Shown: positions 1-54,586, counted from the first letter of the stretch. The stretch is 64,000 nucleotides of DNA from an uncultured Gammaproteobacteria bacterium (GCA_964425075.1 CAYRKM010000001.1:180031-244030), one strand, 5' to 3'. The notes: a model not told the origin generated them from the letters alone. Program-made: numbers and translations.

Positions 1-403
1 CCTCCAATATCCCATGAAAATAACCCCCTAAACATATATCCGGGTCTTGATTTAACATAATCTCTTTCCATCGCGATGGATCTTTTTTGAGCCCAATGCT
101 TGAAACATAATGTGCTATCAAATGACAGTCAGTCGCATCTTTATCTATTTTCTGCATTTCGCTCACTGTTTCCTGAACGTATGAAAGCTTCTTTTGTTTT
201 GCAAGAGAGGATAATTCCTTAACAAAACAGGTAAATTTTTGCTTTGAGCTACAGGTTGCTATTATTCTCTGTGCTGTTTTGTCAGGAGAAATAAAAACAT
301 TCACCCAGATCAAAAAACCTATCATTCCCAAACAAAAAATAGCCAGAAAAACGATAATGCTTTTTAAAATTAATGACTTATAAGGTCTCCTGTTTTTTAC
401 CAT
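1..403 (-). CDS. Cys-rich membrane-anchored protein, family paralog (partial; C-terminus lies beyond the window start)
   Basis: Manual translation of the reverse strand from the ATG at 403-401 gives MVKNRRPYKSLILKSIIVFLAIFCLGMIGFLIW (N-terminal TM helix), then ...CHLIAHYVSSIGLKKDPSRWKEIM...CLGGYFHGILE. This matches the YCHVLGHELSAREVKKDPSKWKDVL...GCLHGGLQE block of the ORFs at 2282-3496 and 3493-4767. The gene is not in the ORF track because it is truncated at the window edge. Confidence 0.5.
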   Translation of the reverse strand, partial: MVKNRRPYKSLILKSIIVFLAIFCLGMIGFLIWVNVFISPDKTAQRIIATCSSKQKFTCFVKELSSLAKQKKLSYVQETVSEMQKIDKDATDCHLIAHYVSSIGLKKDPSRWKEIMLNQDPDICLGGYFHGILE

Positions 404-464
404 TACAACTATTTTACAGGAACACGAATAAGGAAGTTAAGCTTTTAAAAAATTAAGCGGAGGT

Positions 465-1406
465 CTATCCTAAAGAAGCTCTGTGTTGTGCAAAGTCTTG
501 TTCAAAAACATCTACAGACATACCAAAGGCTTCAGAGAAAGCATCTCTAAAACTAGGCGCGGTTTGAGATACCCTTAAATAATCTCCTACTGCCGCCATG
601 CCCCTATCCCCTACCAATCTATCTATTGCCATATAGGCAAGCGCGTATGGATAGCCAACAAAACTATCTCCAGGCGTAAAGTTTTCAAGTCGTTTAATGC
701 TTGGTGTTGCTAACATTAAACCCTTATTGTATGCCCTTGCCTCCTCTTGAGTAAGTCTTCCACTATCAACCAATGCTGCATACCCAGCATACTCCGCTAT
801 ACCTTCTGTAACCCAGTCGTATTCTCCTTCATTGTTTACATTTTGCCCTTGATATGCGTGCATTAACTCATGAGCTGACAATTTTCTTTTAAGGTTTTCG
901 TTTAAACCTGTCCATCCACGACCACCAGTATTTATTGATACTCGTCTTGAACCGGATACCCCAGTATCCTTAGCTCCGGGAGAATAGCTTAAATGAACTT
1001 CGACCGGCTCAGTGATAGTCAACCCCAACGCATTATCGAAATAAACTCGTGCATTACTTATTGCATCTTGTGCAATTTCTCTATCCAAGACGGGAACGTT
1101 TTCACCAATTATAAAACTTAATTCTGCAGGTGTTTTAGGTTCTGTAATTGCATCGACCTGAGGCAAACCTGGTTCCACATCTGCCTGAACATCTTCAATT
1201 GCTGGCAGCACTCCAGCATTTATATCTGGAACTGAAGGTAAAGAACTCGAAGATTTTCTTCTACCTAGAACCTCTCTTCCAAGAATAGCGCTAGCTGTTG
1301 CAGTTCCCAAAACTCCAGCACCAGCAGCAACAATTGCCGCAGGCTTTCCATACTTCTCTAGGAAAGTTCTCCTTCCCATTGTTTGCCCCATTCTTGCTTC
1401 AGCCAT
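465..1406 (-). CDS. secreted zinc metallopeptidase-like protein (HExxH)
   Basis: An N-terminal hydrophobic signal/TM segment (AAIVAAGAGVLGTATASAILG) and an HELMHAYQG zincin motif (HExxH), with a downstream Glu-rich segment (EGEYDWVTEGIAEYAG) that may supply the third ligand. It is embedded in the Cys-rich paralog array. Confidence 0.5.
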   Translation of the reverse strand: MAEARMGQTMGRRTFLEKYGKPAAIVAAGAGVLGTATASAILGREVLGRRKSSSSLPSVPDINAGVLPAIEDVQADVEPGLPQVDAITEPKTPAELSFIIGENVPVLDREIAQDAISNARVYFDNALGLTITEPVEVHLSYSPGAKDTGVSGSRRVSINTGGRGWTGLNENLKRKLSAHELMHAYQGQNVNNEGEYDWVTEGIAEYAGYAALVDSGRLTQEEARAYNKGLMLATPSIKRLENFTPGDSFVGYPYALAYMAIDRLVGDRGMAAVGDYLRVSQTAPSFRDAFSEAFGMSVDVFEQDFAQHRASLG

Positions 1407-1450
1407 AATTTTATGTTAACGCTATAAGATGTGATTGTCAATAAATGTGT

Positions 1451-2257
1451 TTATTTTCCATCCCTAATTGCTTCAGGAAAACATGTTCCTTCAGGAAACC
1501 AGGGCGATTCAGGAGAAATACTGCAAGCACCGATAATACTGGTTCCATTACCGTCTGAGGTGGATACCCCATCCCTATAGGTAAAAAGGCTATCTAATCC
1601 TCCTTTTGAATTTGGTGAAAGTTTTTCTTTTACTGGAGAACCACCCTTTAGTTTAAAATTATTCCATGCCCCAAAGTTGTCCTCTTGAGAAACAACAATA
1701 AATTTTTCTACAGTAGTCTGAGCGGTTTCTTGACCTACGTCTCTTGCATTTACATTTGGAACTGTAATTAATATATCCGTATCTGAATGAACACCTGTTG
1801 GTGATTCATAATCTTGAAAACGTATTTTTACTCCATTTATATTAATTTCTGCGTAGCGTTCTGTTTGTGTCATCCCTGCGATTGTTACTTGCTGGGTTGT
1901 CAACTTTAAGGGCTCTGTTGGATGATATTCGGGTTTTAATCTCCTTTTAATATAATCATCTATTCTTTGCTCAGGCGTATTTTTGTTCACTTCAGGGGCA
2001 ACCGTTACAGACACCTCAGGAGTTAAAACAACCCTAGGCGTAGAAGTTGGTGCTGGCTCTGTGGGAATTGGCGTTATGATCCTTCCTTCGGGTGTTTGTG
2101 TAGAGTCATCAGCCTCGCCGCCTCCACAGGCAATTGCTGCAGCGGCTATAAAACCACCAGCTCCAAGCCCTAATCCTCTTGCTCGATTTCGTACTGATTG
2201 AGGTAAAAATTCCTTCATTAAGCTCATTATAGCATCTATTATAGGCTTGTCAAGCAC
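1451..2257 (-). CDS. putative lipoprotein / secreted hypothetical protein
   Basis: Signal peptide with a lipobox-like sequence FIAAAAIACGGGEADD, followed by Pro/Thr-rich linkers (TPIPTEPAPTSTP). No recognisable catalytic motif. Confidence 0.4.
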   Translation of the reverse strand: MLDKPIIDAIMSLMKEFLPQSVRNRARGLGLGAGGFIAAAAIACGGGEADDSTQTPEGRIITPIPTEPAPTSTPRVVLTPEVSVTVAPEVNKNTPEQRIDDYIKRRLKPEYHPTEPLKLTTQQVTIAGMTQTERYAEININGVKIRFQDYESPTGVHSDTDILITVPNVNARDVGQETAQTTVEKFIVVSQEDNFGAWNNFKLKGGSPVKEKLSPNSKGGLDSLFTYRDGVSTSDGNGTSIIGACSISPESPWFPEGTCFPEAIRDGK

Positions 2258-2281
2258 GCTTTGTTTACTCTTTTTTTGCTG

Positions 2282-3496
2282 TTAATTCCTCGAGCTATTC
2301 TGCTTGCCGATGCATTGCGTTTTCCACTTTTCTGGCAGGCTATTGCATACTTTCATAGACTCTTTTGAACCTGAATGGAAATTAAATGTAGAATATGTGA
2401 CGAGCTCATCATAGCATTCGTCACCAACATTTAAATTGTTTGCAGTATTACAAAGCTCTACTGCCTTTTCGATATTACGATAATCAACCTCTATCATTCT
2501 TGAAGCTGCGTTTGCAAAACACAACCCTCTTCGCTCAAGGTTTATTTCTTTACAAAAATCAATTACTCTTTTTGAATCTAAATTTAGCTGTGAAGTAATA
2601 ATATAAAAAAGCGCATTAAAACATCTTTGTCTGTAATTCGTTTCAGCCTTATTGCAGAACTTCTCCAAACCCTGTGGCTTGGTTATTTCATCAGAAAAAA
2701 GAGGCCAACTTTCACTATGACACGAGGCTTTTTCAGTGTTAGAATAGCTAGCGCAAAATTTATCTACCGTGTCTTTTGTTGGCTGTTTGCCTTTGACTAA
2801 TGCAAAATCTTCCGGTTCAAGTGGCTGAAACATTTGCATAAAAACCCCGTCGTAACAAACCTGCCTCCAGTCTGTTTTATCCTTCAATGCAACCTTACCG
2901 CATAAGGATAAGGCTTTTGGAATATCGGCATTTGTTACATACATCATCAAATGACCCATCGCGTGATAACAGGAGCCCTGCTCCAATCCTGTTGGATTCC
3001 AAGTATCTCGAGGCTCACACAATACCATGAAATCCTTAAGATACTCTTTAATCTGAGAATCCGTCAAAGACTCTGCTCTAAATTTTTCCTGAAGTCCACC
3101 ATGCAAACATCCATTTGAACACTGCCCACTTGGACATCTTGTCAATACATCTTTCCACTTTGATGGATCTTTCTTAACTTCCCTTGCTGAAAGTTCATGA
3201 CCCAACACATGACAGTACGCATATGATGTATCAAAATCTTGAACAATCTTTGTAACTTGGAATGCCTGTTCCATAGAAATTTTATCCATAAGTTTTGGAA
3301 TTTCCTCGTCATAACACTTAGGCTTAAATGGTGCATCTTTACATTTTGCAATCATCTGCTCGGCATATTTCTTTAAAACTTCATGACTTATATTTTTTAC
3401 CTGCCACTCACTATTCGCTTTTAAAAATACAATAAGCTCAGCAACAATTAATAATGCTAATACAAAAATGGTAATTCTCATTCTTTTCGTTTTCAT
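2282..3496 (-). CDS. Cys-rich membrane-anchored protein, paralog A (unknown family; duplicated HxxGH motifs)
   Basis: N-terminal TM helix (ITIFVLALLIVAELIVFL) and about 22 Cys residues. Motifs YCHVLGHELS, GCLHGGLQE, CYHAMGHLMM and CYDGVFMQMFQPLEPEDFALVK. Roughly 50% identical to the neighbouring ORF at 3493-4767. Confidence 0.6.
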   Translation of the reverse strand: MKTKRMRITIFVLALLIVAELIVFLKANSEWQVKNISHEVLKKYAEQMIAKCKDAPFKPKCYDEEIPKLMDKISMEQAFQVTKIVQDFDTSYAYCHVLGHELSAREVKKDPSKWKDVLTRCPSGQCSNGCLHGGLQEKFRAESLTDSQIKEYLKDFMVLCEPRDTWNPTGLEQGSCYHAMGHLMMYVTNADIPKALSLCGKVALKDKTDWRQVCYDGVFMQMFQPLEPEDFALVKGKQPTKDTVDKFCASYSNTEKASCHSESWPLFSDEITKPQGLEKFCNKAETNYRQRCFNALFYIITSQLNLDSKRVIDFCKEINLERRGLCFANAASRMIEVDYRNIEKAVELCNTANNLNVGDECYDELVTYSTFNFHSGSKESMKVCNSLPEKWKTQCIGKQNSSRN

Positions 3497-4767
3497 AAGG
3501 TATTGTTAGATGGCTGCTCTTTTTTAAAACATTTTTCTTGCCATGGTTGAGGTAAATTTGTACAAAAATCGTTAAATTCAGAAGAAATGGGCTTAAACCC
3601 AAAAGTACCCATTGGATACAATTTCTCAAAGCAGTAGTCCTCAAAACCCGCGTCCTTTGCTATTTTACAGATTGAAATAGCCTCATTTGCGTAGTTTGGT
3701 GAAATATTTATCATTCTTATCGCAGCATCTGCAAAACACCAGGACATTTCACTTTCTGGCAATGTTGTACAGAAATCATAAAGCGCGTTGATATTTTTTT
3801 GATTTACCATGAAATATACAGTAAGAAAACTCATCCCAGCAGAAATACAACGTCTACGCTCAAATGCATCCTCAGAATAAGAACAAAATTTAATAAGACC
3901 CTGAGGAGACTTAATTTCTTCCCTAAATAATGCCCATGACTCAGCATGACAAGTTCCTATATATTTCTTATTATAGCTATTACAAAAAGAGTCGATATTT
4001 TCTTTTTTAGGTGTAAGTTTTTTTACTAAAGCGTAGTCTTCAGGCTCTAAGGGCTGAAAAACTTGCATAAAAACCCCCTGCGTACATGTCTGTACACGAC
4101 TCTCTCCACTTGGTCTTACTGCTACCTCTTCGCAAATAGAAAGGGACTTATTAATGTCCGCATTTGTCATAAACATTGCAAGATGTCCAATGCCGTGATA
4201 ACACATTGAGATTTCTACAGGCACTGGATTCCACTTTCCTCTTGGCTCACAGATTGTTTTCATTTCAGGTAAAAGTTTTTCTATTTGGGAGTCGGTCAAG
4301 CTTTCTGAATTGAAAATTTCAAGCAATGGTCCATGCAAGCACCCATTGTTACACATTGTCGTTGGACATCTTGCTATCACATCTTTCCACTTTGAAGGAT
4401 CTTTTTGCGTCTCTCTACCAGACAATTTGTGCCCCAAAACGTGACAGTAATTGTACTGAGAATCTTTCGTCTGAATAACTTTAGTGACACGAAATGCATC
4501 CTCCATCGTAATTTTATCCATAAGTTTTGGAATTTCTCTGTCATAACATGAAGGGTGATATTTGGAATCTTTACACTCCTCTATTACCATTGAGGCATAC
4601 TTAGCAACTTCATTTTCGGATAGAATATTTCCAATTGCATCCTCTTTTTTAAATAAAGATAGAGCAAGAATAACTCCTTCGATAAAGGCTATAATCAAAA
4701 ACACTCCAATAATTAAAACCATTAATTTATGGCTCCTTTTTAAGTTTTTATTTTTCCTTTTAGTCAT
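3493..4767 (-). CDS. Cys-rich membrane-anchored protein, paralog B
   Basis: N-terminal TM helix; YCHVLGHKLS, GCLHGPLLE, CYHGIGHLAMF, CTQGVFMQVFQPLEPEDYALVK. Its stop overlaps the start of the next gene by 4 nt, so the two read as an operon. Confidence 0.6.
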   Translation of the reverse strand: MTKRKNKNLKRSHKLMVLIIGVFLIIAFIEGVILALSLFKKEDAIGNILSENEVAKYASMVIEECKDSKYHPSCYDREIPKLMDKITMEDAFRVTKVIQTKDSQYNYCHVLGHKLSGRETQKDPSKWKDVIARCPTTMCNNGCLHGPLLEIFNSESLTDSQIEKLLPEMKTICEPRGKWNPVPVEISMCYHGIGHLAMFMTNADINKSLSICEEVAVRPSGESRVQTCTQGVFMQVFQPLEPEDYALVKKLTPKKENIDSFCNSYNKKYIGTCHAESWALFREEIKSPQGLIKFCSYSEDAFERRRCISAGMSFLTVYFMVNQKNINALYDFCTTLPESEMSWCFADAAIRMINISPNYANEAISICKIAKDAGFEDYCFEKLYPMGTFGFKPISSEFNDFCTNLPQPWQEKCFKKEQPSNNTL

Positions 4768-4775
4768 ATATTCAA

Positions 4776-5804
4776 TTAATTTGCATCAGAACATAAATAT
4801 TCCAAAGAGCTTGGCAGCGGATCACAAATTTTTGATACCAAATGACGATATTGTGGATTAGCAAAAAATGCCCAAGCAGCTCCAACCTGACAATAATTTT
4901 TACCTTCTTCAGTAGGCATTAGGCTACATTTTGAAAGGGCCTCTTCGACTTTGTAGCTAGGTGCTGGAATTACATTTCCAATTCCTCGAAAACATACTCT
5001 CCGCTCGTCATCATTTGAAATTTCACCACAAAACTCCCCTATCTTTTTAAAATCATCAAGAAAAATACTTTCCCACCATTGACCCAAACTAAAATAACAA
5101 GCTTGTCTAAATCTTTCTGGTACTTCACTGTTGCATGGATAATATGGATTTTTATCGTTAAATTCTCTTATTTGAGAGTCCTTCGCAGACAAGCTAAGTG
5201 GTACATTATATTGCATAAAAACCCCATCCTGACAACCATGCAATTTGCCTTGCCATGTAAGGGTGGCGCACATATTTAAAGCTTCTACAAGCTTGTCCTC
5301 CCCTAAGTATTCTAGCAATCCATGCCCAATTCCATGGGGACAACCAAGGCCTTTAATGCCATACTTCTCTATACACAGCTTATCCAATTCTGGTAAAACC
5401 TCTGGGCCTTCAACGGGTAAAATTGAAAGGAAAAAACCATGAAAACATCCAAATCCAAAGTCATTTCCACAAACTAACATGCCCCTTTTTCCCTCTTTTT
5501 CATACAACAATTCACCAAACATATGCATTACTCCGTGCTGAATACCAACTTGTTCATTCTCAAAATGGGAAACGATATTTTTATAAACCTCACTCGATGA
5601 ATTATTCAAAAGTGCCTCTTTTAGGATTTTTCTATTTTTAACAAGATCTGCATCAATCCCTCCTAGATAATTAACTTTCTTAGAATTTGCCGGTCTTGAA
5701 AGAGCAAAAGCAGTTGTCAGAATTGCAATAAACGAAATATTAATTAGTAATAAAATTACAATTATATTTTTTTTGGAAAGAAATTTTTTTTTATTCCTAC
5801 TCAT
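4776..5804 (-). CDS. Cys-rich membrane-anchored protein, paralog C (divergent)
   Basis: N-terminal TM helix (IIVILLLINISFIAILTTAFAL); GCFHGFFLSI, CPHGIGHGLLEY, CQDGVFMQYNVPL. Same architecture as A and B but much more diverged. Confidence 0.55.
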   Translation of the reverse strand: MSRNKKKFLSKKNIIVILLLINISFIAILTTAFALSRPANSKKVNYLGGIDADLVKNRKILKEALLNNSSSEVYKNIVSHFENEQVGIQHGVMHMFGELLYEKEGKRGMLVCGNDFGFGCFHGFFLSILPVEGPEVLPELDKLCIEKYGIKGLGCPHGIGHGLLEYLGEDKLVEALNMCATLTWQGKLHGCQDGVFMQYNVPLSLSAKDSQIREFNDKNPYYPCNSEVPERFRQACYFSLGQWWESIFLDDFKKIGEFCGEISNDDERRVCFRGIGNVIPAPSYKVEEALSKCSLMPTEEGKNYCQVGAAWAFFANPQYRHLVSKICDPLPSSLEYLCSDAN

Positions 5805-7011
5805 AGCTACACTCCTTTTGATATTGAGGTGGAATAGCCTGACAATACTCCTTTAGTTTTTCGACTCTATAAAATTTGACCATTCCTGTCAGATTTGAAA
5901 AACATTCTTTCTCAATATTCTCAGATGATAATAACTTACAAAACTTAATTGCTGCCGAAACGTCGTTCTCCCCTCCCCAGTAGATACTTGCTAACGCACT
6001 TATATTGCAATAAGTCTTACCTTTTTCGTTATCTGCAAGAGAACACCAGTTTATTGTTTGTTTGAGCTCCTCGGGCGTCATATTTGAAATATTACGAATA
6101 TCCCTTCCCTTTGCAAAAACAACAAATTCTTTACCAAATCCGCCATAACAAGCCTGTCGATAGACTTCCTCTTTAAGCACATTGCAGTATGGAAATGATT
6201 TTTCAAAATCCTGAGGCTGAGGATTACTTAAATTTCCACCTGCGAATTTAAATAGATGTGGGGTAAGATACGTAAAACATTGTGAGCGAACCTCAGCAGG
6301 CATAAAATCTGCCGTACATGGATATAGGGGATCTGATGTCGTAAGGTAAAATTCAGATTGCTTGGTCCATAATTCTTTATCATGATCCCCACCTGAAATT
6401 ATTTCCATAATTGCCCCTCCCACACATTCAGGAAACTCTCTTCCACCACTTTTTCCGGTTTTTGTTTTTTCACAGAGGGCAATAGTTTTTGGCAAGTCAT
6501 AACCGGTAAAGGCAAGCACTCCATGACCTAAACCATGAAAGCACATATTATATGCACCTTTTCCACCTGGGGCCTTTTCACATGATTTCTCAATTTCAGG
6601 AAGCGCCGCCTCCCCCTTGTCTGAAAATAGACCAACTACTATAGTGTGTGAACAAGCATTTCTAAAGTCTTGGGTACAATATTGCATTCCCTCTGCTCCT
6701 TTTTGAATATATAAAATCTCCCCAACAACATGACCCAACAAATGCATATCAACATTTGGTTGAAATGGAATCCGCTTAAGAACCTCAAAAGCATAAACCG
6801 CCCCCTTCTTTTGAGCAAGAGAGGTAAAATAATCATCTAATTCTTTACCGTTAAAATGTTTTCCTTCGAAATATTTCAGTTCAGAAAAATCATTCCTCTC
6901 TCCTTGAGTTGATTTTATGTAGAAAAATAAAAGAAAAAGAATATTGACAATAAGAAGAATTGCTATCGCAGACAGAAGGAAAATCTTTCTTTTTTTAAAT
7001 GCTCTTACCAT
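5797..7011 (-). CDS. Cys-rich membrane-anchored protein, paralog D (divergent)
   Basis: N-terminal TM helix (IFLLSAIAILLIVNILFLLFFYI); MHLLGHVVGEILY and MCFHGLGHGVLAF (HxxGH, two copies); Cys spacing as in paralog C. Overlaps paralog C by 8 nt. Confidence 0.55.
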   Translation of the reverse strand: MVRAFKKRKIFLLSAIAILLIVNILFLLFFYIKSTQGERNDFSELKYFEGKHFNGKELDDYFTSLAQKKGAVYAFEVLKRIPFQPNVDMHLLGHVVGEILYIQKGAEGMQYCTQDFRNACSHTIVVGLFSDKGEAALPEIEKSCEKAPGGKGAYNMCFHGLGHGVLAFTGYDLPKTIALCEKTKTGKSGGREFPECVGGAIMEIISGGDHDKELWTKQSEFYLTTSDPLYPCTADFMPAEVRSQCFTYLTPHLFKFAGGNLSNPQPQDFEKSFPYCNVLKEEVYRQACYGGFGKEFVVFAKGRDIRNISNMTPEELKQTINWCSLADNEKGKTYCNISALASIYWGGENDVSAAIKFCKLLSSENIEKECFSNLTGMVKFYRVEKLKEYCQAIPPQYQKECSYE

Positions 7012-7052
7012 ATACTAAGGATAGCGCATTACCAATAACAAAAAAAGTGAAA

Positions 7053-7619
7053 TTATTCTTTGGGGGTGACAAAAAAGAAACCGGCAACGCCACTTAAATC
7101 ATCACAAATGTATCCATACAACCCATTTCCTCGTCCAAAATCAGCCTTGAAAGTCTCCGTAGAATTTGCCTTTACGGTAAACTTCTTCTCTCCAATAATA
7201 ATTGTGTGATCTGATGTATCTGAATTTACTACATCAAACTCCTGTCCATTAACCAGCTTCATGTCCAAAGGAGATGGCCCGTTACATTTGTTAAGTTGCA
7301 AAGCTGATGCCTCTTTGGCTAGTTTTTTCCCAATTTGATAATGAGCATTTCTTTGTGCTTCTGAAGCAGTCTGACCAGGTGGTGTCATAAGTGCAAGCTC
7401 TTCCTCACTAAGTCCTTCTGGGAGAGGTCTTTTTGGCTTTGAATTTGATGCTTGTTTCGCAGCTGTATTAGATGAGGATTTTGAAGTTGCGGAGTTTTGA
7501 GGTAAAAATCGATCTAGGAATCCTTGTTTGTATATTGCAAAACCCAATCCCACCGCAACAAGCGCTAGAATTATTATTATCCAAACTAATTTTTTCTCCG
7601 AAACGTTCGTTGGGTTCAT
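7053..7619 (-). CDS. membrane-anchored secreted hypothetical protein
   Basis: N-terminal TM helix (LVWIIIILALVAVGLGFAIY), then a Ser/Lys-rich linker and a C-terminal globular region. No motif recognised. Confidence 0.4.
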   Translation of the reverse strand: MNPTNVSEKKLVWIIIILALVAVGLGFAIYKQGFLDRFLPQNSATSKSSSNTAAKQASNSKPKRPLPEGLSEEELALMTPPGQTASEAQRNAHYQIGKKLAKEASALQLNKCNGPSPLDMKLVNGQEFDVVNSDTSDHTIIIGEKKFTVKANSTETFKADFGRGNGLYGYICDDLSGVAGFFFVTPKE

Positions 7620-7657
7620 AGTTAAAGATTACATCCTTTTTTTCTTACAGTCAATAT

Positions 7658-8230
7658 TTATAAAGCTGATGGGCTTGCCGTATTTGGAGCCCTCTCGGGA
7701 AATAGAAAAATTCTTTTAAGATCCCATGCCCCATTTTTCGCATCAAACATAACGGATAAATTTACTTTTAAACCCACATTCAAATCTCCAATATTTGCTG
7801 GTTGAGGAGGCGAACCTATTTTCCCTTTCGCAATAACTGTGTCATCTGTAATTGTGAATTGTGGCACTTGTAAATTGGGGTCTGTCGTTGACGATACAGT
7901 AACAATTCTCTTCGTCGGATCATACGCACTTATATTTACCCCTTCCAGGGTATAGTACAGAGATGCGGTAGATACAGATATACTTGCGGGATCAATTGGA
8001 AAACTTTTTGCAATTTCAGTTTGTGCCTTAAAACCATTGCCACCAGCTTGATGAGGCAACCAACCAAATATTTGCGGGTTATTTTGTGACAAAGGTAAGA
8101 CGTTAACAAAATTTAAAAGAAGCAAAATATATAAAAGAACTACTACTCCTATAAGTCCAAGAACAAGCAAAACTTTTTTTGAAGAGTTATTTGAATTTTT
8201 GGAAGGATAAGTAAGAGCCGTGTTCTCCAT
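7658..8230 (-). CDS. membrane-anchored hypothetical protein
   Basis: N-terminal TM helix (VLLVLGLIGVVVLLYILLLLNFV). The extracytoplasmic part has no recognisable motif. Confidence 0.4.
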   Translation of the reverse strand: MENTALTYPSKNSNNSSKKVLLVLGLIGVVVLLYILLLLNFVNVLPLSQNNPQIFGWLPHQAGGNGFKAQTEIAKSFPIDPASISVSTASLYYTLEGVNISAYDPTKRIVTVSSTTDPNLQVPQFTITDDTVIAKGKIGSPPQPANIGDLNVGLKVNLSVMFDAKNGAWDLKRIFLFPERAPNTASPSAL

Positions 8231-8272
8231 AATTTCAGTGTAATAATTTTAGGCTATCGGTGTCAATGAGGC

Positions 8273-8680
8273 TTATTTGGAAACAATAATTTTACCAGTG
8301 TAATATGGAGCTAGGTGGTCATGAAATCCCCATTGCCCCTCCTTTTTGAATGTAAAACTCCAGGTTTTGTCAGGCATTATTGCGTCTTTTGGATCAAATT
8401 CAGGAAAAATTCCATGCGTTGGATGAAGATTTGAAGCTGGCCAAAATGGCTTACCAAGAATTGTTTTAAACTCTACAGTATCTCCCTTTTTTATTCGTAC
8501 ATTATTGGGCACAAACCCATCTTCTTTAAGCTCAACAATAATTACTTTGCCTGTGCTTGTATTTGAATTCAAATATTTCACTCCGAAAACTACTCCTGCT
8601 ATCAAAAAAATTGCAATTATAATTAAGGGGAAGAATTTCTTCACAAGATTAATATTAAAACTTGCGGAAGAAATGTTCAA
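8273..8680 (-). CDS. membrane-anchored cupredoxin-like domain protein (no Cu-ligand Cys)
   Basis: N-terminal TM helix. GFVPNNVRIKKGDTVEFKT and WGFHDHLAPYYTGKIIV resemble cupredoxin / EfeO-like beta-sandwich strands. The protein contains no cysteine, so it is not a blue-copper site. Confidence 0.35.
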   Translation of the reverse strand: MNISSASFNINLVKKFFPLIIIAIFLIAGVVFGVKYLNSNTSTGKVIIVELKEDGFVPNNVRIKKGDTVEFKTILGKPFWPASNLHPTHGIFPEFDPKDAIMPDKTWSFTFKKEGQWGFHDHLAPYYTGKIIVSK

Positions 8681-8719: not shown

Positions 8720-9415
8720 ATGGACAACAATGGCGCTGCTTTCTTGAAAAGACTCAAGAATCTATGGATAGAACCTGACTTTACATATTTCTTTAAAAAA
8801 TTTGCCAAACGCCCTCCCCTACTAATAAAGGCAGGAAAAACAATCTTTTACGAAGGTGATGAACCTGGAAAGCTCTACTTTGTTAAAAAAGGCTTTGTAA
8901 AGATGTATAGAATGTCTGAGGAAGGAAGAAGTACCGTTATCTATCTTTATGGACCCGGAAGTCTTCTTGGAGTCCGCGCTCTAACATCAGAAGACAGACA
9001 ATTAAAACATACTGCAGAAGCAATGACAGACGTTGAAATTATTACTTTGTCAGAAGAAGATTATCTTAATGCTTTATCAACCAATCCTGAATATCTAGTA
9101 GATCTTCTTCAAGTCTTTATAAAACGCCTGAATTACACTGAAAGAAAACTTGAAGGATTTATTTTAACCGATGTTACTGCAAGAGTGGCAAGTTTTCTTT
9201 ATGATCTCGTAATCAGATTTGGAATAAACAAAAACGGCAAGGTAGATCTTCCTCTACCATTAACACACCAAACAATAGCTGAGTTTGTGGGAGCTTTTAG
9301 AGAGACAGTGACTCTTGCAATGAATAGACTAAGAAAAGAGGCAATACTTGACGACAAACGAGGAAAAATAACTATTCTTAACACAAAAAAACTTAAAGAA
9401 CAAACGCTTGCCTAG
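8720..9415 (+). CDS. Crp/Fnr-family transcriptional regulator
   Basis: N-terminal cNMP-binding-like beta-roll (IFYEGDEPGKLYFVKKGFVKMYRMSEEGRSTVIYLYGPGSLLG) and a C-terminal HTH (HQTIAEFVGAFRETVTLAMNRLRKEAIL). Confidence 0.75.
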   Translation: MDNNGAAFLKRLKNLWIEPDFTYFFKKFAKRPPLLIKAGKTIFYEGDEPGKLYFVKKGFVKMYRMSEEGRSTVIYLYGPGSLLGVRALTSEDRQLKHTAEAMTDVEIITLSEEDYLNALSTNPEYLVDLLQVFIKRLNYTERKLEGFILTDVTARVASFLYDLVIRFGINKNGKVDLPLPLTHQTIAEFVGAFRETVTLAMNRLRKEAILDDKRGKITILNTKKLKEQTLA

Positions 9416-11003: not shown

Positions 11004-11254
11004 TTCACCCTCCTTTATTTTGCGATAATATTTTATTTTAAAGTACAGTAATCTTTTGCTTTCGCAAAAGTCGCTCTCATTAAATCCGTTTGCACGAACG
11101 AAAGGCTTTCACCCTCCTTTATAAGAACTAAACTTAATTTTCAAACTACAAACGTTCAGCACGCTCAAAATTGGAATACAACGAAAAACTAGACCAAACA
11201 TCGTGCACTAATTAATATTTTTAAGTATTATTTAGCATGATTTTCAAAAAATCT

Positions 11255-14722
<3,468 letters not shown>

Positions 14723-15097
14723 GAAATAGCACAGATTTTTAAAAATCATGTGCGATGTTCAATATAAAAATTATAAAATTGCGCTTTCCATGTCCTTCAT
14801 GGAAATGCGCGGCCTAGTTAAATGCTCCAGTCCACTGATGTTGACTGAAGCTGTTGTATCCCAATTTTCAACGTGCTGTACCCTTAAACAGTTTGTTAAA
14901 GGATTATCTCGCCTCATGCATTTAAAGAAGGCCAGCTGTAGCGCTGCGCCTTTTTTAAAGACACGAAGTCTATTAGTTATTAGTTACTAGTAATTAGGAA
15001 TAGTTTTCAAAAACTGACAACTAGTCCTAACAACTACTCCTGAATTGGTGGACCCGGAGATGCGCTGACGCAAGTCCGAATCTCTACCTAATTCCAG

Positions 15098-42909: not shown

Positions 42910-43677
42910 ATGGCATCACGTCACTCTTCAGTTGCAAAAACTCTCTTAAACACTCCACTTCAAGTTCTTGCAACTCGACTTATGTATGTAGTTCTTCTTT
43001 TTGCTTTTTTAGTAATTGGATATCTTTTGGGAAGTCTTTATCCAATTAAGGGCGGTGCACTTTCCCAAAACACAAATCCTACAACGGGTACTCAACAAGC
43101 TGCCCCCGAAGAAGCTCCAGCTCCTGAGCCCGAAACTGTTCTTGAAAAACTAAAAAACCCTAGACTTCCAGCAAAGGGAGATAAGAATGCACCTGTAACT
43201 ATAGTTGAATTTTCAGATTTTGAATGCCCATTCTGTGCTAGATTTTACTCAGAAACTCTTCCCAAAATCCAAAAAGAATACATAGACACTGGTAAAGTAA
43301 AGCTTGTCTACATGCACTACCCACTTTCATTCCACGCTAAAGCAAAGCCATTAGCAAATGCAGCAGAATGTGCAAATGATCAAGGCAAATTCTGGGAAAT
43401 GCATGACAAAATTTTTGAGAACAACACATCTGGCGCTTTATCTGCCGCAACGGACGATACCTACAAACAGTGGGCAGCAGAACTTGGACTAAACACAACC
43501 AACTTTAATACGTGCTATGACAATAAGACATTTGAATCAGAAATTGACAAAGAATTCACGCTTGGTGGAGAACTTGGTGTTTCAGGAACACCTGCATTCT
43601 ATATTAATGGACGCCAGCTTATAGGCGCTATGCCATTTGAGTCATTTAAAGCAATAATTGACGAAGAACTAAAGTAA
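42910..43677 (+). CDS. DsbA-like thiol:disulfide oxidoreductase, membrane-anchored
   Basis: TM anchor (VVLLFAFLVIGYLLGSL) and IVEFSDFECPFCARFY, the CPxC thioredoxin-fold active site typical of DsbA/BdbD. A possible TTGACA-17 nt-TTAAGT promoter abuts the ATG, so the transcript could be leaderless. Confidence 0.75.
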   Translation: MASRHSSVAKTLLNTPLQVLATRLMYVVLLFAFLVIGYLLGSLYPIKGGALSQNTNPTTGTQQAAPEEAPAPEPETVLEKLKNPRLPAKGDKNAPVTIVEFSDFECPFCARFYSETLPKIQKEYIDTGKVKLVYMHYPLSFHAKAKPLANAAECANDQGKFWEMHDKIFENNTSGALSAATDDTYKQWAAELGLNTTNFNTCYDNKTFESEIDKEFTLGGELGVSGTPAFYINGRQLIGAMPFESFKAIIDEELK

Positions 43678-49187: not shown

Positions 49188-49280
49188 AAGTTACCTGAGC
49201 ATAGCTCAAGAACCGCACAGCATAATGCACGACCTTGATACCCGCGGGGATGCGGATAGAACTTGCTCAGAGGCTGAAAA

Positions 49281-49619
49281 TCAGGACGGGTCCGTGGCCA
49301 GGATGGTATCGAACCGCTTCCGCAGGTCGAACTTCGGCCGGAAGCCGACGATCTGCGCGGCGAGCGTGCCCTGCTTGAAAACCAGGAGCATCGGGATCGA
49401 CCGGATCCCAAACCGACTTACGATCCCCGGGTTATCGTCCGTGTTGATCCTGAGGAACTTCATCCGTCCCTCGTACTCCACTGCGAGGTCCTCAAGGATC
49501 GGACTCAAGTTGCGATACGGACCGCACCAGGGAGCCCAGAACACCACCGAGACCGGGATTTCACTCCGGATGACGTCTGCGTCGAACATTGTATCATTTG
49601 TGTCCGGCTGATTTGCCAT
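49281..49619 (-). CDS. thioredoxin-like protein with a CGPY (monothiol) active site, GC-rich
   Basis: VVFWAPWCGPYRNLSPIL...MKFLRINTDDNPGIVSRFGIRSIPMLLVF is a thioredoxin fold. The second active-site Cys is Tyr (codon TAT). AGGAAGG Shine-Dalgarno upstream. GC is far above the window background. Confidence 0.6.
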   Translation of the reverse strand: MANQPDTNDTMFDADVIRSEIPVSVVFWAPWCGPYRNLSPILEDLAVEYEGRMKFLRINTDDNPGIVSRFGIRSIPMLLVFKQGTLAAQIVGFRPKFDLRKRFDTILATDPS

Positions 49620-49678
49620 GCTGCGCTTTCCTTCCTGAAAAGCTCTCCCCTGTACGGGAAGAACTACGAATTGATGAG

Positions 49679-50056
49679 CTACTCAGACACCGTCAGCTTG
49701 TATCCGAGCTGTATATCAACTGGTGTGCCCCCTGCTTTCCAAGAAGCCATCGGCGAAACAGTCGCCGGCTGTCCGTTGACGGTGAAACTGATCGCCTCAC
49801 CATGCTCTGGTTTACAAGGCGAGTCAGCAGGTATCTGCATAACCCACTCACCTGAGGCGTTAGCCTCCGAAGTCGCACACAATTTTCCGCCAATTAAGGC
49901 GTCCACTGTCTGGCCTAACGAAAGACCCTTGCCATATAGCACCATAGGAAGCACCTGATTTTCAATCGAACCCGCCGTGTCGAGCACGAGCGATAGCACC
50001 AGGGCGATAGCGGCAGCGACGAGGCCAAACCTCGTCATCGCTTTACTAAGGATCAT
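49679..50056 (-). CDS. small secreted protein, GC-rich island; shares its start and signal peptide with 50799-51770
   Basis: MILSKAMTRFGLVAAAIALVLSLVLDTAGS signal peptide with a GAGGAG Shine-Dalgarno 8 nt upstream. Two Cys in the mature part. Confidence 0.5.
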   Translation of the reverse strand: MILSKAMTRFGLVAAAIALVLSLVLDTAGSIENQVLPMVLYGKGLSLGQTVDALIGGKLCATSEANASGEWVMQIPADSPCKPEHGEAISFTVNGQPATVSPMASWKAGGTPVDIQLGYKLTVSE

Positions 50057-50798
50057 CTAGATCTCCTCTCAGCCGCAAAGTCCTTCTTCCTTTGACTACG
50101 GCATCTTGAAGAACAAGAAATTATTCTCCCAAAAGCCGCAACCAAAAAAAATTTTAATTTTCAACCAATTTTTTAATGTACTAAAAAAAGGCCTTTAAAA
50201 AAGTGTATACAATTAGCACAAAGGGCCAAATTTTCTTATGGAAATTTTACTACGGGGTTATCTTGCTTGCAATATAGGTTGATTTTTTAAGTCTGTGGGA
50301 CCCCCGCTGGCTGCGGGGGTCCCACTAATGGGTTCCGCGATGGAACCCAAGGCAAACTAAGCTATATTCGAGAGCACGTCCTTGCGGCGGGGACGGACGG
50401 TCTCAAACTAGCTCAGTTAATGGCTGAATCTCTAGTCCGCACGTTGGAATCGAAATTCCACCGTCGAGACCCCGACTGGAGTTTGTACTCCAAACGTCGG
50501 GAGTGGGGCGAGCAACGCCCGGAGCACTCCCTCCAGCCGAGGTCCCGCCCACCACGTGGGTGGGGCGGGTGGCGACCCCTATGTCGCCCGGCGAGAAGTC
50601 AGGCGACGCTTACGCCTGCCAAGAGCTTGCGTATCACGCAGGCCTTCCTTTCCTATAGCCAAACGCGTGTTGATCCGGGTCCTGCCCGGAGGCGCTCGGG
50701 CAGGACCAGTGGTCCCATCAGAGCGTCTTGCGTTGTTGGGAGGCCCGCCCGAAGGCGGGCCCCCCACTTCCACGTCGGTGATCCCGACGCGCTACGGA

Positions 50799-51770
50799 CT
50801 AGTCCTCGCGGCGTCCGTAGAGTTGTCGACCCGCGACCGCAGCGCCAGCCACAGCCGCAAAGCCGAGAAGCAGCCAGAGGCCACCGTTGCCACCATCCGA
50901 ACCGAGGAGACCAGCGTTACCGGACTTCGGCTCATTGGTGTTTCCAGCCCGGATCGCGACCGAGCTGTTGGCCTCAAAACCGTCGGACGCGCTGAACGTC
51001 GTCGGGTCCAGGTTGGACGAGGAGGGACTACTGACCGAGCTGATGCTCGACCTCTGCCTCTCCATATATGCCGCCGGGTTGTACCCAGCCGCTTTGCTCG
51101 TCGTCCAGTTGAGGTTCGTTGCCACGATCACGCCGGCCGGGGTGCCGAGGATCGTGTTGTTCGCGACGATCGCCGAGGGATGAAGCACACCCACGACGAA
51201 AGCCGAAGCGGGGCAGATCATGACGCACTTGCCGCTGGTTCGGGGATTGGCCATCGCGAACCCGTAGTGGGGCCCGAAGTAGCTGGAGCCACCGATCCAG
51301 AAAACGACCTCCACGTCGGTCCCGTTGACCATGCGAAGCTGGTCGAGCCGGGGTGCGGGACTGGCCCTCAGGCCGGTACCCATGTTGAAGTGGACCGGAT
51401 TCACCGTGCCGGCATCCATCACGCGCTCGTTCGTGCTCGCGAAGAACTTGACACCGAACCCATCGTCGGCCGCGTCGAAGGCCATCGGTTGGCTCTTCGG
51501 GCCGATCGCAGCAGTCGAAACGACCGAGGCGAAAGCCTGATGCTCGAGCTGCGGCGTTGTGATGCCAATGCTCGAAGCAGGACCTCCCTTCTCAGCAACC
51601 AGCCCAGTGTTGTCCGTCGTGACGTGGCCGACCGTGAGGCCCTTGCCAGTCGTCATCACCAACTGCTCCTTGGCCGAAGCCGAACCCGCGGTAGCGAGTC
51701 CGAGCGTCAGCACCAGAGCAATGGCAGCAGCCATGAGCCCGAGACGGGTCATCGCCTTTGACAGGATCAC
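50799..51770 (-). CDS. secreted protein with a C-terminal hydrophobic anchor, GC-rich island
   Basis: A likely GTG start at 51770 (GAGGAGGCAGGAG then GTGATCCTG) gives MILSKAMTRLGLMAAAIALVLTLGLATAGSASA, a near-identical cassette to 49679-50056 at both DNA and protein level. The C-terminus GGLWLLLGFAAVAGAAVAGRQLYGRRED is a hydrophobic stretch with a basic tail (sorting-signal-like). The track ORF extends to 51800. Confidence 0.5.
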   Translation of the reverse strand: MILSKAMTRLGLMAAAIALVLTLGLATAGSASAKEQLVMTTGKGLTVGHVTTDNTGLVAEKGGPASSIGITTPQLEHQAFASVVSTAAIGPKSQPMAFDAADDGFGVKFFASTNERVMDAGTVNPVHFNMGTGLRASPAPRLDQLRMVNGTDVEVVFWIGGSSYFGPHYGFAMANPRTSGKCVMICPASAFVVGVLHPSAIVANNTILGTPAGVIVATNLNWTTSKAAGYNPAAYMERQRSSISSVSSPSSSNLDPTTFSASDGFEANSSVAIRAGNTNEPKSGNAGLLGSDGGNGGLWLLLGFAAVAGAAVAGRQLYGRRED

Positions 51771-52426
51771 TCCTGCCTCCTCTCTGAAAGAGAACATCAC
51801 AGCGAAGCGTGTGCTAATCTATAAGCATCTCCTTTCTACGCACCTCAGCGCTGGACCGACAAGTGCCGATCTACTCAGCGCGACGGGGCGGGCTTTCCCA
51901 CGGAGGACTCCGTGAGTGAACCATCTCCGATCCTTTCTGTTAGGCTCTTTCGAACCTCTGATTGATTGCCCTCCTCTGCCAGGGCCTCCTTGTACTGCTC
52001 GAGCGTAGCTCCAAGGAGTCTTTGCAAGAGTTAAGCACTAATTTAGTGGCCATGGCCCTACAGACTGCAAAACGTTGTACGTGTTCGAGCGACCCGAAGG
52101 TCCACGACGCACAACGTTTCCACAAGTAGGAGGAGACGTGTGTCAATCTGTCTGACCATGGCCCTTCGAGAAACAAACTGACTTATTCCCCCAAAAGCCA
52201 CGGCCAAACATAAATAACCCACGACCTTACGGTCGGGGTTTTCTTGAACATTATAAAAAAATTCTAGATTTTCAGCCAATTTTCAATGTACTTAGAACCT
52301 GGTCATATTATTCTGCATGCAATACGCAGTAATTACGCCAAGTTAACTATGATTTGGATTATATTCTCACACTATATTATTTGCAATAATATTTAGTTTT
52401 TAAAAATTGAGGGAGACTGACTATTC

Positions 52427-54586
52427 TTAAGATGGTTTTCGGCCGTACCGTTCTTTTGAAAGTCGAATAACTGCTTCTCTATTGTCATTTTTTAAATTTG
52501 GTAATGGAAGGGTTTTAGCGGGAAATGGCATTGAACTCATTCCATCAATTGAAAGTTTTAGAACTATCTCGTGTTTTCCTAATGACACAAGGTCGTTTTG
52601 AGTATAAATTCCTGCATATTCCTGCTGCAATAACGCAGCATCCCCTGCCCCTGTTACAAATGAAATCAAAGTTCCTGCATTTCCAAAAATGGATTTTTGG
52701 ATGGTTACATCGAGCTGGTCTATGTATTGGTTAGCAAGAGTTATCGCAAGCCTATACTTTCTAGCCTCCGATAAAATCTTTATGAATGAGCTTGTTGCAA
52801 AATTCTGAAACTCATCGACATATAAGAAAAAGTCGCGTCTATCCTCTTCCTTCATAAAGGCTCTGTTCATAGCAGCAAGCTGGATTTGAGTAATAATCAT
52901 AGCTCCAAGAAGTGAGGCATTGTCCTCACCAAGTTTTCCTTGAGAAAGATTTAATAACAAAATTTTTCCTCCATTCATTATTTCCTCCAAATCAATTGTC
53001 GACTTAGGGCTCCCGATAATATTTCGTATCATCTTGGAACTAACAAATTGCCCTACTTTATTCTGAATTGGAGAAATAGCTTCAACTCTGAGTTTATCCG
53101 TCATTTTGTCAAATTCATTCTCCCAGAAATTACGTATCACAGGATCTGTAATTTGAGGAACCACTTTATTTCTGTATTCTTTCTCAGACAAAATACGTAA
53201 AGCATCAATTAATGTCGCATTTGGAATTTCAAGAAGAGAGAAAATTGTATTACGCAAAATATACTCCAAACGTGGTCCCCAACTGTCTGCATAAATTTTA
53301 CTAAAAATTGAAACAATTCCCGAGGCAATTAAATCCTTATGCTGCTTATTTTTAATTTCCAAAACATTCAAAGAAAAAGGCCTTTCGGTATCAAAAGGCT
53401 CAAGATACACCACGTCATTTAGCCGTCTTTTTGGAATATAATCTAAAACTGTTTCACAAAGGTCCCCATGAGGGTCAATTATCCCGATTCCCCTGCCTTT
53501 TCTTATGTCATCAATTGCCATATTTGCAATTAAGGTAGATTTTCCAGCACCTGTTTTTCCCATAATATATACATGCTTTCGTCTGTCCTCGTCTTTTATT
53601 CCAAAAATAGTACTTTGATTTTTAAATTCTGTTGCAGCAAAGAAATTAATATTTTTCTTCTCTTCCTCACTTACATTTATAGCGGTTGGGATATTCTCGG
53701 GTGGCTCTCCAGCAAGGGTTTTACCCCAAGAAATATTCTTAATTCCAGATAAGGCCTTGCCTGTCGGATGCCATAGGGTCGCAAGCTCTTGGGCATTTAA
53801 AATTTGACTGCGTCTCTCAAGAAGTCTTACTTTACGCTCCAACGTTCTTTTATAAAGTCCATTTTTATTCACAATTGGCCGTTTTAACTTAAAACTATTT
53901 CCCTCACCTGAGGCAAAACTTCCAAATGTCCCTGCAACATTTTGCAAAAGCGTTACGGGACTATGTGTGTCTGATGAGGTAATAATCCTAATAACTGCCT
54001 TCCCTCCTTGAAACTGTGTTTTTTGTGTTACAACTGATGCGGAAACGGAAGCTTCCTGTGCTTTTGTTCCATCAGAATTTAATTTTGGTTGGGTTGCAGA
54101 AATTGCATTTGATTGCCAGGGAAATGAAGCTGGCGACACCAAAATCTGAATGCCAATATTTACGTCTTGATCCTGCTTTGCAAGAAATCCAATAAGAGAA
54201 GACAGTGCATCAACTTCTGAAAAATCTTTATATGTTTTTATGGGGTAATAATAATATGAAGAAAGCACTAACTCACCTATTTCTTTGTGTTTTGATTTTG
54301 CAAAAACTTCCATGGGGTCAGTGGTTTCAAGCACTGCTGAGCGTGGATAAGACGAGGCCATAAGACTTGTCACAAATGCTTCGTGTTCCTTTGGAACTGT
54401 TATGTAAAAGTAAACGGTTTGGGAAAGCATGTAAATTTCAAACGAAACCACCCTTGGCTTTTTCAACATTCTTTTAAACAAACCAAAATAATTGGGTAGG
54501 AGAGCTGAAAAAATCTGAGTTGCAGCCTCAGCTGTGGTCTCATCATCTTTTGGCGTTTTGATGTGTAGATAGACAAGATCCTTCAT
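52427..54586 (-). CDS. P-loop ATPase of the TraG/VirD4/HerA-FtsK superfamily (coupling-protein-like), 719 aa
   Basis: Walker A YIMGKTGAGKSTLI, Walker B LYVDEFQNF and ARKYRLAITLANQYIDQL, like the TraG/VirD4 C-terminal R-x-G...Q..QL. There is no N-terminal TM segment; the N-terminal 330 aa is uncharacterised. Confidence 0.45.
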   Translation of the reverse strand: MKDLVYLHIKTPKDDETTAEAATQIFSALLPNYFGLFKRMLKKPRVVSFEIYMLSQTVYFYITVPKEHEAFVTSLMASSYPRSAVLETTDPMEVFAKSKHKEIGELVLSSYYYYPIKTYKDFSEVDALSSLIGFLAKQDQDVNIGIQILVSPASFPWQSNAISATQPKLNSDGTKAQEASVSASVVTQKTQFQGGKAVIRIITSSDTHSPVTLLQNVAGTFGSFASGEGNSFKLKRPIVNKNGLYKRTLERKVRLLERRSQILNAQELATLWHPTGKALSGIKNISWGKTLAGEPPENIPTAINVSEEEKKNINFFAATEFKNQSTIFGIKDEDRRKHVYIMGKTGAGKSTLIANMAIDDIRKGRGIGIIDPHGDLCETVLDYIPKRRLNDVVYLEPFDTERPFSLNVLEIKNKQHKDLIASGIVSIFSKIYADSWGPRLEYILRNTIFSLLEIPNATLIDALRILSEKEYRNKVVPQITDPVIRNFWENEFDKMTDKLRVEAISPIQNKVGQFVSSKMIRNIIGSPKSTIDLEEIMNGGKILLLNLSQGKLGEDNASLLGAMIITQIQLAAMNRAFMKEEDRRDFFLYVDEFQNFATSSFIKILSEARKYRLAITLANQYIDQLDVTIQKSIFGNAGTLISFVTGAGDAALLQQEYAGIYTQNDLVSLGKHEIVLKLSIDGMSSMPFPAKTLPLPNLKNDNREAVIRLSKERYGRKPS

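Follow-up and report, generated by a model that had tools for sequence, protein, structure and literature searches.

Several groups of described proteins come close to the gene array analyzed here. Proteins with Hcp/Sel1-like repeats are secreted and consist of alpha/alpha repeats, each with a pair of cysteines that is thought to bridge its two helices; in Hcp repeats, the spacing between these cysteines is fixed and short. In multicopper oxidases and NirK, which are defined by the presence of at least two cupredoxin domains and a type-1 copper site, the histidines flanking the type-1 cysteine bind type-2 or type-3 copper at the domain interface. Finally, metal binders of the CopC, YcnI and EfeO types are membrane-associated, extracellular beta-sandwich proteins. 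The array occupies positions 1-8680 of a 64,000-nucleotide (nt) stretch of DNA (hereinafter, the window) that comes from an assembly of an uncultured Gammaproteobacteria bacterium (GCA_964425075.1 CAYRKM010000001.1:180031-244030). It encodes a series of Cys-rich, membrane-anchored paralogs, denoted A to E, along with a cupredoxin-like protein, cup135, and several other anchored proteins.

We propose that this array is an extracytoplasmic module for metal handling or redox chemistry, with copper as the probable metal, which the module would bind, pass on or use; we put the probability of this reading at roughly 0.4. In the proposed mechanism, the array proteins would be located at the external side of the cytoplasmic membrane, and the products of D, C, B, A and E would be type-II anchored, disulfide-stapled alpha-solenoids of about 10 two-helix repeats, in which H96/H100, H132, H178/H182 and M220 (numbering of paralog A), located on the second helices of repeats 2-5, would form a metal site. 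The solenoids would work with cupredoxin-like domains that lost the blue-copper cysteine, and the histidines of the HPxH and HxH motifs of these domains would occupy the interfacial-copper positions of multicopper oxidases and NirK. What leads us to a metal is the combination of invariant His and Met residues, the fusion architecture, an HxH motif of the oxidase type and a neighboring family with a predicted N-terminal His; the genes, their anchors, the conservation of Cys and His, the predicted fold, the synteny, the fusions and the cupredoxin homology are direct observations.

The array and its relatives

The array section consists of 10 consecutive open reading frames (ORFs), all on the minus strand and transcribed in the order cup135, s190, s188, D, C, B, A, a lipoprotein-like gene, a gene for an HExxH protein, and E (Table 1); the coordinates that a preliminary description of the sequence had given for the paralogs are exact, and so is the shared strand. 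It had also given overlaps of 4-8 nt throughout, which applies to the A/B (4 nt) and C/D (8 nt) junctions only, the remaining ones being gaps of 8-61 nt. Each product has a single hydrophobic segment at the N-terminus, following 2-7 lysines or arginines, and no later transmembrane segment (the N-terminal segments of the Cys-rich paralogs have Kyte-Doolittle values of 2.7-3.1 and follow 4-7 such basic residues), so that most of each protein is expected, from the positive-inside rule, to lie outside the membrane. A single operon encompassing the whole array is possible but not established because a sigma-70-type promoter sequence, which is a consensus match only, follows A, and no terminator-like sites were found between the array genes. 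This promoter consensus overlaps the listed GTG start of the lipoprotein-like gene, the true start of which is probably Met11 or Met14 (the protein has 258 amino acids (aa) in another assembly); the gene may have a transcript start of its own at this site.

Table 1. Features of the window that are discussed in the text, with positions counted from its first nucleotide
Feature	Positions	Strand	Remarks
Paralog E	1..403	-	N-terminal 134 aa of a fifth Cys-rich solenoid; 3' part lies past the window edge
HExxH protein	465..1406	-	inserted in array; HELMH motif in translation
Lipoprotein-like gene	1451..2257	-	inserted in array; lipobox-like AAIAC
Sigma-70-type consensus	2226..2253	-	TTGACA, 16 nt, TATAAT, with TG; 12/12 matches; between A and lipoprotein-like gene
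Paralog A	2282..3496	-	404 aa; type-II anchored, predicted alpha-solenoid; 20 conserved Cys
Paralog B	3493..4767	-	424 aa; A-like subtype, 20 Cys; own orthologs
Paralog C	4776..5804	-	342 aa; shorter subtype, 14 Cys; CPHGIGH and DGVFMQ
Paralog D	5797..7011	-	404 aa; 16 Cys; MHLLGH, CFHGLGH and GGAIME
s188	7053..7619	-	anchored; C-terminal degenerate cupredoxin-like domain; two invariant Cys
s190	7658..8230	-	anchored, 190 aa, no Cys; homolog in 1/75 loci
cup135	8273..8680	-	anchored, cupredoxin-like, no type-1 Cys; PF13473 (Cupredoxin_1) E 2.5e-6
Crp-family regulator	8720..9415	+	divergent; no Cys; cNMP_binding and HTH_Crp_2
DsbA-like thioredoxin-fold protein	42910..43677	+	Thioredoxin_4 E 6.9e-36, DSBA E 1e-18; distant from array

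The translations and hydropathy profiles confirm that the five paralogs share one architecture, with an N-terminal anchor in each. A and B, initially described as about 50% identical, measure 46-48%, whereas C and D are, as also described, far more divergent (A/C 23%, A/D 21%, C/D 27.5%); the truncated E, in whose translation the anchor helix is followed by CHLIAH and GGYFHG, has 27-29% identity with A and B. The number of Cys is even in A to D, with consecutive pairs spaced 8-16 residues apart; a count of about 20 in each, as originally given, is accurate for A and B (20) but not for C (14) or D (16).

The solenoids are widespread. A search with the single sequence of A yielded 851 homologs; among the matches listed, the closest are 50-62% identical, and those named by their source are hypothetical proteins of Patescibacteria lineages. 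An exhaustive profile search retrieved 4,449 representative clusters (50% identity) at E<=1e-3, of which 1,994 were found at E<=1e-10. We further scanned one genome per species, called ORFs in the resulting 75 distinct loci and compared them with the window proteins. Nearly all these loci are labelled Patescibacteria, Parcubacteria or Microgenomates, and a few carry automatic labels of Gammaproteobacteria, Verrucomicrobiia or Acidimicrobiales, which we took as given; this distribution of homologs and related loci agrees with the initial impression of a reduced-genome, episymbiont-like organism, here one resembling the candidate phyla radiation (CPR). With 4,449 clusters and recurrence in 75 loci, the array is not a chance configuration. 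Absence from related genomes, which had been considered a sign of an assembly-specific duplication, is not what we find, and the 75 related loci rule out such a duplication. In 68 of the 75 loci, the array lies on a single strand. The number of copies varies among related genomes: the 27 loci of at least 20 kb contain 3-11 solenoid genes (median 6).

Orthologs of the individual subtypes in distant Patescibacteria are 40-57% identical (somewhat less for C), compared to 21-27% between paralogs. Among the solenoid genes of an array, the D ortholog (40-54%) usually comes first, many loci have a C ortholog (30-47%) immediately upstream of the A ortholog, and B-type orthologs (36-49%) often follow a cupredoxin fusion; the gene order s188-D-C-A recurs across loci. 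Because orthologs are far closer to each other than paralogs and the order is recurrent, A, B, C and D are, judging from these sequence comparisons, ancient, conserved and constrained subtypes, as opposed to recent or fast-diversifying copies. Distinct conserved subtypes in a recurrent order suggest that they could be non-redundant subunits or successive steps of one cell-surface metal module.

These results bear on the interpretation favored in the preliminary description, namely, that the array encodes diversifying surface proteins that an episymbiont would use to attach to its host or for surface remodelling, with the paralogs being selected variants. All the products are anchored and surface-exposed, there are 3-11 copies per locus, the organism is CPR-like, and helical repeats commonly bind proteins, as would befit such a system; however, ortholog identities of 40-57% in distant lineages and the recurrent gene order argue against diversification, and about 90 of the 404 columns in the alignment of A orthologs are at least 90% conserved, loops included. 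Furthermore, neither an invariant His/Met strip nor fusions with cupredoxins would be expected in variable adhesins. We consider a host-interaction role very unlikely.

Solenoid fold, cysteine pairs and histidine strip

The AlphaFold2 (AF2) model of paralog A, which was built from 89 aligned sequences (mean predicted local distance difference test (pLDDT) score 95.1, predicted template modelling (pTM) score 0.88), is all-alpha and consists of an N-terminal helix followed by about 22 helices that make up about 10 two-helix repeats. Comparison of repeat-block profiles supports the internal repetition, with a probability of 94% for the top pair of blocks and 77-87% for six more pairs. In the AF2 secondary structure, each two-helix repeat contains a Cys pair, with one Cys at the end of the first helix and the other at the start of the next; in this model, one disulfide would staple each repeat.

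Scans of A-D against Pfam and NCBIfam produced no matches to any model, a Pfam scan of the 89 aligned members detected no family common to more than two of them (TPR_1 in 2 of the 89, at E 0.011 only), and a sequence profile search of the PDB with the solenoid gave no matches at E<=10. The Foldseek matches of the solenoid (PP2A, importin, Tom71) have template modelling (TM) scores of at most 0.26. Given these weak profile and TM scores, a HEAT, ARM or TPR solenoid is ruled out, and only the general alpha-solenoid class is shared. Membership in the Sel1/Hcp family is ruled out, too: there is no PF08238 match at E<=1 in A-D and none among the 25 most frequent families of the 89 members, and no structural similarity to the solenoid was found in solved Hcp/Sel1-like structures. 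The present solenoids differ from Hcp/Sel1 proteins in their variable Cys spacing (8-16 residues), membrane anchor, invariant His strip and link with cupredoxins. The profile and structure tests thus bear out the earlier view that the proteins are neither Hcp/Sel1 nor zincins, and the check proposed for the 404-aa paralog results in a confident alpha-solenoid model and no match to a characterized family.

Giant relatives of the solenoids (P0194, P0172, P0235 and P0241) might be either true fusions or gene-calling artefacts, both being possible. In this set, a protein of 3,580 aa combines seven solenoid copies with GH3 and HEAT/LRV repeats, an 813-aa relative joins a Wzy_C membrane domain to a solenoid, and relatives of 2,143 and 1,727 aa contain 4-5 solenoid copies.

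To assess residue conservation, we aligned 342 solenoids, drawn from all the subtypes, to a single profile. The positions C176-x-H178-x-x-G181-H182, C199, C214 and G217 are about 100% conserved. The conservation of H96, H100 and H132 is 92-98% in A, B and the fusion subtypes, and 52-96% in C, D and the unclassified set, where the automatic alignment is poorer (H132 is misplaced in D); H96 and H132 stay invariant in MAFFT alignments. M220 is 100% conserved across A-D. Accordingly worded, the duplicated HxxGH motif of the preliminary description holds for the second copy, C-x-H-x-x-G-H, which is 100% conserved in all subfamilies; the first copy is better represented as H-x3-H and, in C, reads QHGVMH, with neither Cys nor Gly. 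The DGVFMQ block, also described as shared, is GGAIME in D, so that G217 and M220 are its sole invariant positions.

The strip in paralog A comprises H96, H100, H132, H178 and H182 together with M220. Apart from the Cys, the His motifs are the most conserved residues of the solenoids, which makes a metal site plausible and lends substance to the original suggestion that these His could be metal ligands. Counting from the second Cys of a repeat, H132, H178 and D216 are at position +2, and Q136, H182 and M220 are at +6; H96 and H100, at +1 and +5, are one residue off this register. Based on the register, the strip residues should line up along the second helices of repeats 2-5, where the His and Met could constitute a transition-metal site.

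With 14-20 nearly invariant Cys per protein and DsbA-like thioredoxin-fold genes nearby in several loci, the Cys might themselves be the working groups, engaged either in thiolate metal storage of the Csp type or in a thiol-disulfide relay. We find this explanation quite improbable: one pair per repeat, positioned at helix ends, 8-16 residues apart, in even numbers and in an extracellular protein, is the pattern of structural disulfides, and individual pairs are dispensable in some subtypes (C281/C292 is lost in fusions and the last pairs in C), whereas the His strip is not. As the principal explanation, an iron-sulfur or Csp-like role of the Cys is ruled out by the pairing, the extracellular location and the loss of pairs in subtypes. 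The DsbA-like genes adjoin arrays in about seven other loci; the DsbA-like protein of the window is a candidate oxidase for the solenoid Cys pairs.

Cupredoxin-like partners of the solenoids

Both profile and structural matches to cupredoxins identify the fold of cup135. The family to which it belongs, denoted His4, is represented in 61 of the 75 loci, as a free protein in 40 and, in 42, as the N-terminal partner in a solenoid fusion; such fusion ORFs number 86 altogether. The profile of 39 family members matches amicyanin (E 4.6e-9); of the type-1 ligands of the latter, Cys92 is replaced by Asp, His95 by Ala and Met98 by Tyr or Phe, and the first His alone is kept. None of the 39 members has a Cys in the aligned cupredoxin domain. 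A type-1 blue copper protein, such as amicyanin or plastocyanin, is ruled out because three of the four type-1 ligands are gone in all 39 aligned members. 

Four His are invariant in the family (cup135 numbering): H86 and H89, which form the HPxH motif, and H120 and H122, which form HxH. In the profile of the C-terminal half, G-x-W-x-(Y/F)-H-D-H aligns with motifs of copper enzymes, namely, WYHPH and MFHCH of the copper oxidase 6vox_A (E 4.9e-4), WYHCH and IFHDH of the two-domain laccase 2zwn_A (E 7.3e-4), and MYHCH of NirK. Thus compared by sequence, one HxH motif of multicopper oxidases and NirK appears to align, and its counterpart at the other site is HPxH; this HPxH resembles the start of the oxidase motif HPxHxH, which we take as a lead only. 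The family differs from multicopper oxidases and NirK in that it has a single cupredoxin domain with no type-1 site (Cys replaced by Asp or Asn), that its first motif is HPxH rather than HxH, and that the partner domain is an alpha-solenoid rather than a second cupredoxin. The cup135 family lies, therefore, outside the definition of these enzymes, which includes at least two cupredoxin domains and a type-1 site.

For one fusion, P0339, the model has a pLDDT of 91.8 and a pTM of 0.88, confidence being low in the anchor and in a linker of 7 residues but nowhere else. Because the scores are high despite these floppy parts, we read the model as a fixed arrangement of the cupredoxin and the solenoid within the fusion protein. 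A more specific but unlikely extension is that the Cys-less cupredoxin and the solenoid form a composite multi-His copper center at their interface, with four His on one side and five His and a Met on the other. Similarly doubtful is the consequence that such proteins are membrane-anchored copper oxidoreductases unique to Patescibacteria, the subtypes of which tune the substrate or pass on electrons or metal.

Among the three small anchored proteins encoded ahead of the solenoids, the preliminary description recognized one with a cupredoxin-like fold; in fact, there are two, cup135 and s188. The s188 family is found in 26 of the 75 loci, typically just upstream of D. Its C-terminal domain matches the His4 cupredoxin with 93.9% probability (hhalign) and plastocyanin with an E-value of 2e-4; C112 and C172 are invariant, and C172 aligns with the type-1 Cys, but the ligand set is not complete.

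The database version of cup135 is 123 aa long, and the start might be 12 codons downstream of the listed TTG (window positions 8644-8680); a downstream start would widen the divergent region between cup135 and the Crp-family gene to about 75 bp. One public source names His4 cupredoxins and their fusions (P0309, P0312, P0314, P0393, P0455 and others) 'plastocyanin', a label that is not justified given that three of the four type-1 ligands are missing. In studies of CPR bacteria, 'cupredoxin/plastocyanin' genes, which may or may not include members of the His4 family, have been treated as electron donors to NirK (PMC5581439, PMC12931201).

Neighbors in related loci and other genes of the window

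A family of proteins of about 175 aa (for example, L052:13236-13769 and L001:15910-16452), present in 26 loci, usually comes right after the free cupredoxin and is usually translationally coupled to it. The predicted signal peptide of these proteins ends immediately ahead of an invariant His; their body is rich in beta structure, and a second anchor-like element is absent apart from the C-terminal anchor. In 25 members, the invariant His directly follows an A-x-A-type signal end, with the cleavage judged by eye. Histidine-brace copper proteins are recognized by an N-terminal His (PMC10952591), and, by its sequence features, the family is a candidate histidine-brace protein, with no relatives known. 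Like the CopC/YcnI/EfeO-type metal binders, it is a predicted membrane-anchored beta-sandwich, and its predicted N-terminal His is as in histidine-brace proteins; it differs from CopC and YcnI in showing no sequence match to either (no CopC or DUF1775 (YcnI) match in Pfam), and no CopD-like importer was recognized. Searches against PDB profiles gave only weak matches of the filamin-type immunoglobulin (Ig) kind. Some arrays, in about eight loci, also contain two embedded genes, one for an anchored protein of 160 aa and one for a membrane protein of about 320 aa that is polytopic and has many conserved His; neither product matches Pfam. This gene pair is located, among other sites, at L001:11209-12644, L031:7061-8481 and L071:2435-3876.

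Several points weigh against a metal module. M220 is replaced by Asn in most cupredoxin fusions, and the His strip is read from helix register and the disulfide pairing from the Cys positions in predicted secondary structure, not from three-dimensional positions. Neither the family with the N-terminal His nor the His-rich membrane protein was found in this window. In a Pfam census of 149 other neighbors, the 25 most frequent families listed include none for copper pumps, chaperones, sensors or oxidases, and, to our knowledge, CPR bacteria have few known copper enzymes that would have to be supplied. The rare relatives in which a Wzy_C membrane domain or a GH3 glycosidase is joined to the solenoid suggest work on envelope glycans, and no experimental data on any family member were found. 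What we infer in the proposal is that disulfides form, that a metal is bound, which metal it is and that the proteins assemble into a complex.

Some of these same observations suggest non-metal scaffolds or enzymes of the envelope, acting on glycan, the wall or pili, in which the His would be catalytic or ligand-binding and the cupredoxins would be plain Ig-like modules. We regard this possibility as rather doubtful, on balance. Wzy_C is a domain of the O-antigen-ligase type, the 3,580-aa protein combines seven solenoids with GH3, the neighbors include glycosyltransferases, Ig-like and PKD surface proteins and pilin-like genes, and there is no recurrent copper-homeostasis family among the listed neighbor families; however, the neighbors in the census are heterogeneous and mostly housekeeping, and the fusions with envelope enzymes are rare, amounting to a few of the 150 listed representatives. 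Four invariant His in a cupredoxin at the HxH positions of multicopper oxidases are hard to explain without a metal.

No description of the solenoid family was found in the literature, nor did we find a described counterpart either to this family or to the array taken as a system; the cupredoxin part represents a known fold in a new form. The Patescibacteria are a major part of bacterial diversity; their genomes are very small, and they are generally considered to lack most redox and metal chemistry. Even so, in many of them 5-17 kb is devoted to a solenoid family that has no name, profile or structure. If the module binds copper or another metal, it would reveal conserved surface chemistry in Patescibacteria, provide a new partner fold for cupredoxins, and correct the 'plastocyanin' labels along with the electron-transport models built on them. 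Even if the metal idea fails, a large family with a confidently predicted new repeat fold and invariant residues is a defined target for structural and biochemical study.

The remaining genes of the array section appear to be peripheral. The putative HExxH protease and the lipoprotein noted in the preliminary description are indeed present inside the array and yet fall outside the conserved system, with no homolog of either protein in any of the 75 loci. The HExxH protein has no Cys and starts with a Tat-like motif (...GRRTFLEK...); it matches the M61/M1 and flagellinolysin models only below threshold (Peptidase_M61, 19.3 bits with a cut-off of 22; flagellinolysin, 28 bits with a cut-off of 205). 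s190 has no Pfam or NCBIfam match and is probably lineage-specific. By these sequence comparisons, the HExxH protein, the lipoprotein and s190 are local additions. The divergent Crp-family gene does not recur among the neighbors of related arrays, and its product is a possible local regulator of the array.

Elsewhere in the window, a match to 23S rRNA at 11253-14732 on the minus strand extends over 3,480 nt compared to the 2,925 nt of the model, which implies an insertion of about 550 nt; insertions in rRNA genes are common in CPR. An ORF on the opposite strand to this match (12102-12665) has no Pfam match. At approximately 49200-52000, there is an island with a GC content of about 0.59, as against about 0.37 for the genome; it may represent foreign DNA or a chimeric assembly. 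The island contains genes for a thioredoxin (49281-49619) and for proteins that look secreted and do not match Pfam, and adjoins a gene that resembles those for type IV secretion coupling proteins (52427-54586).

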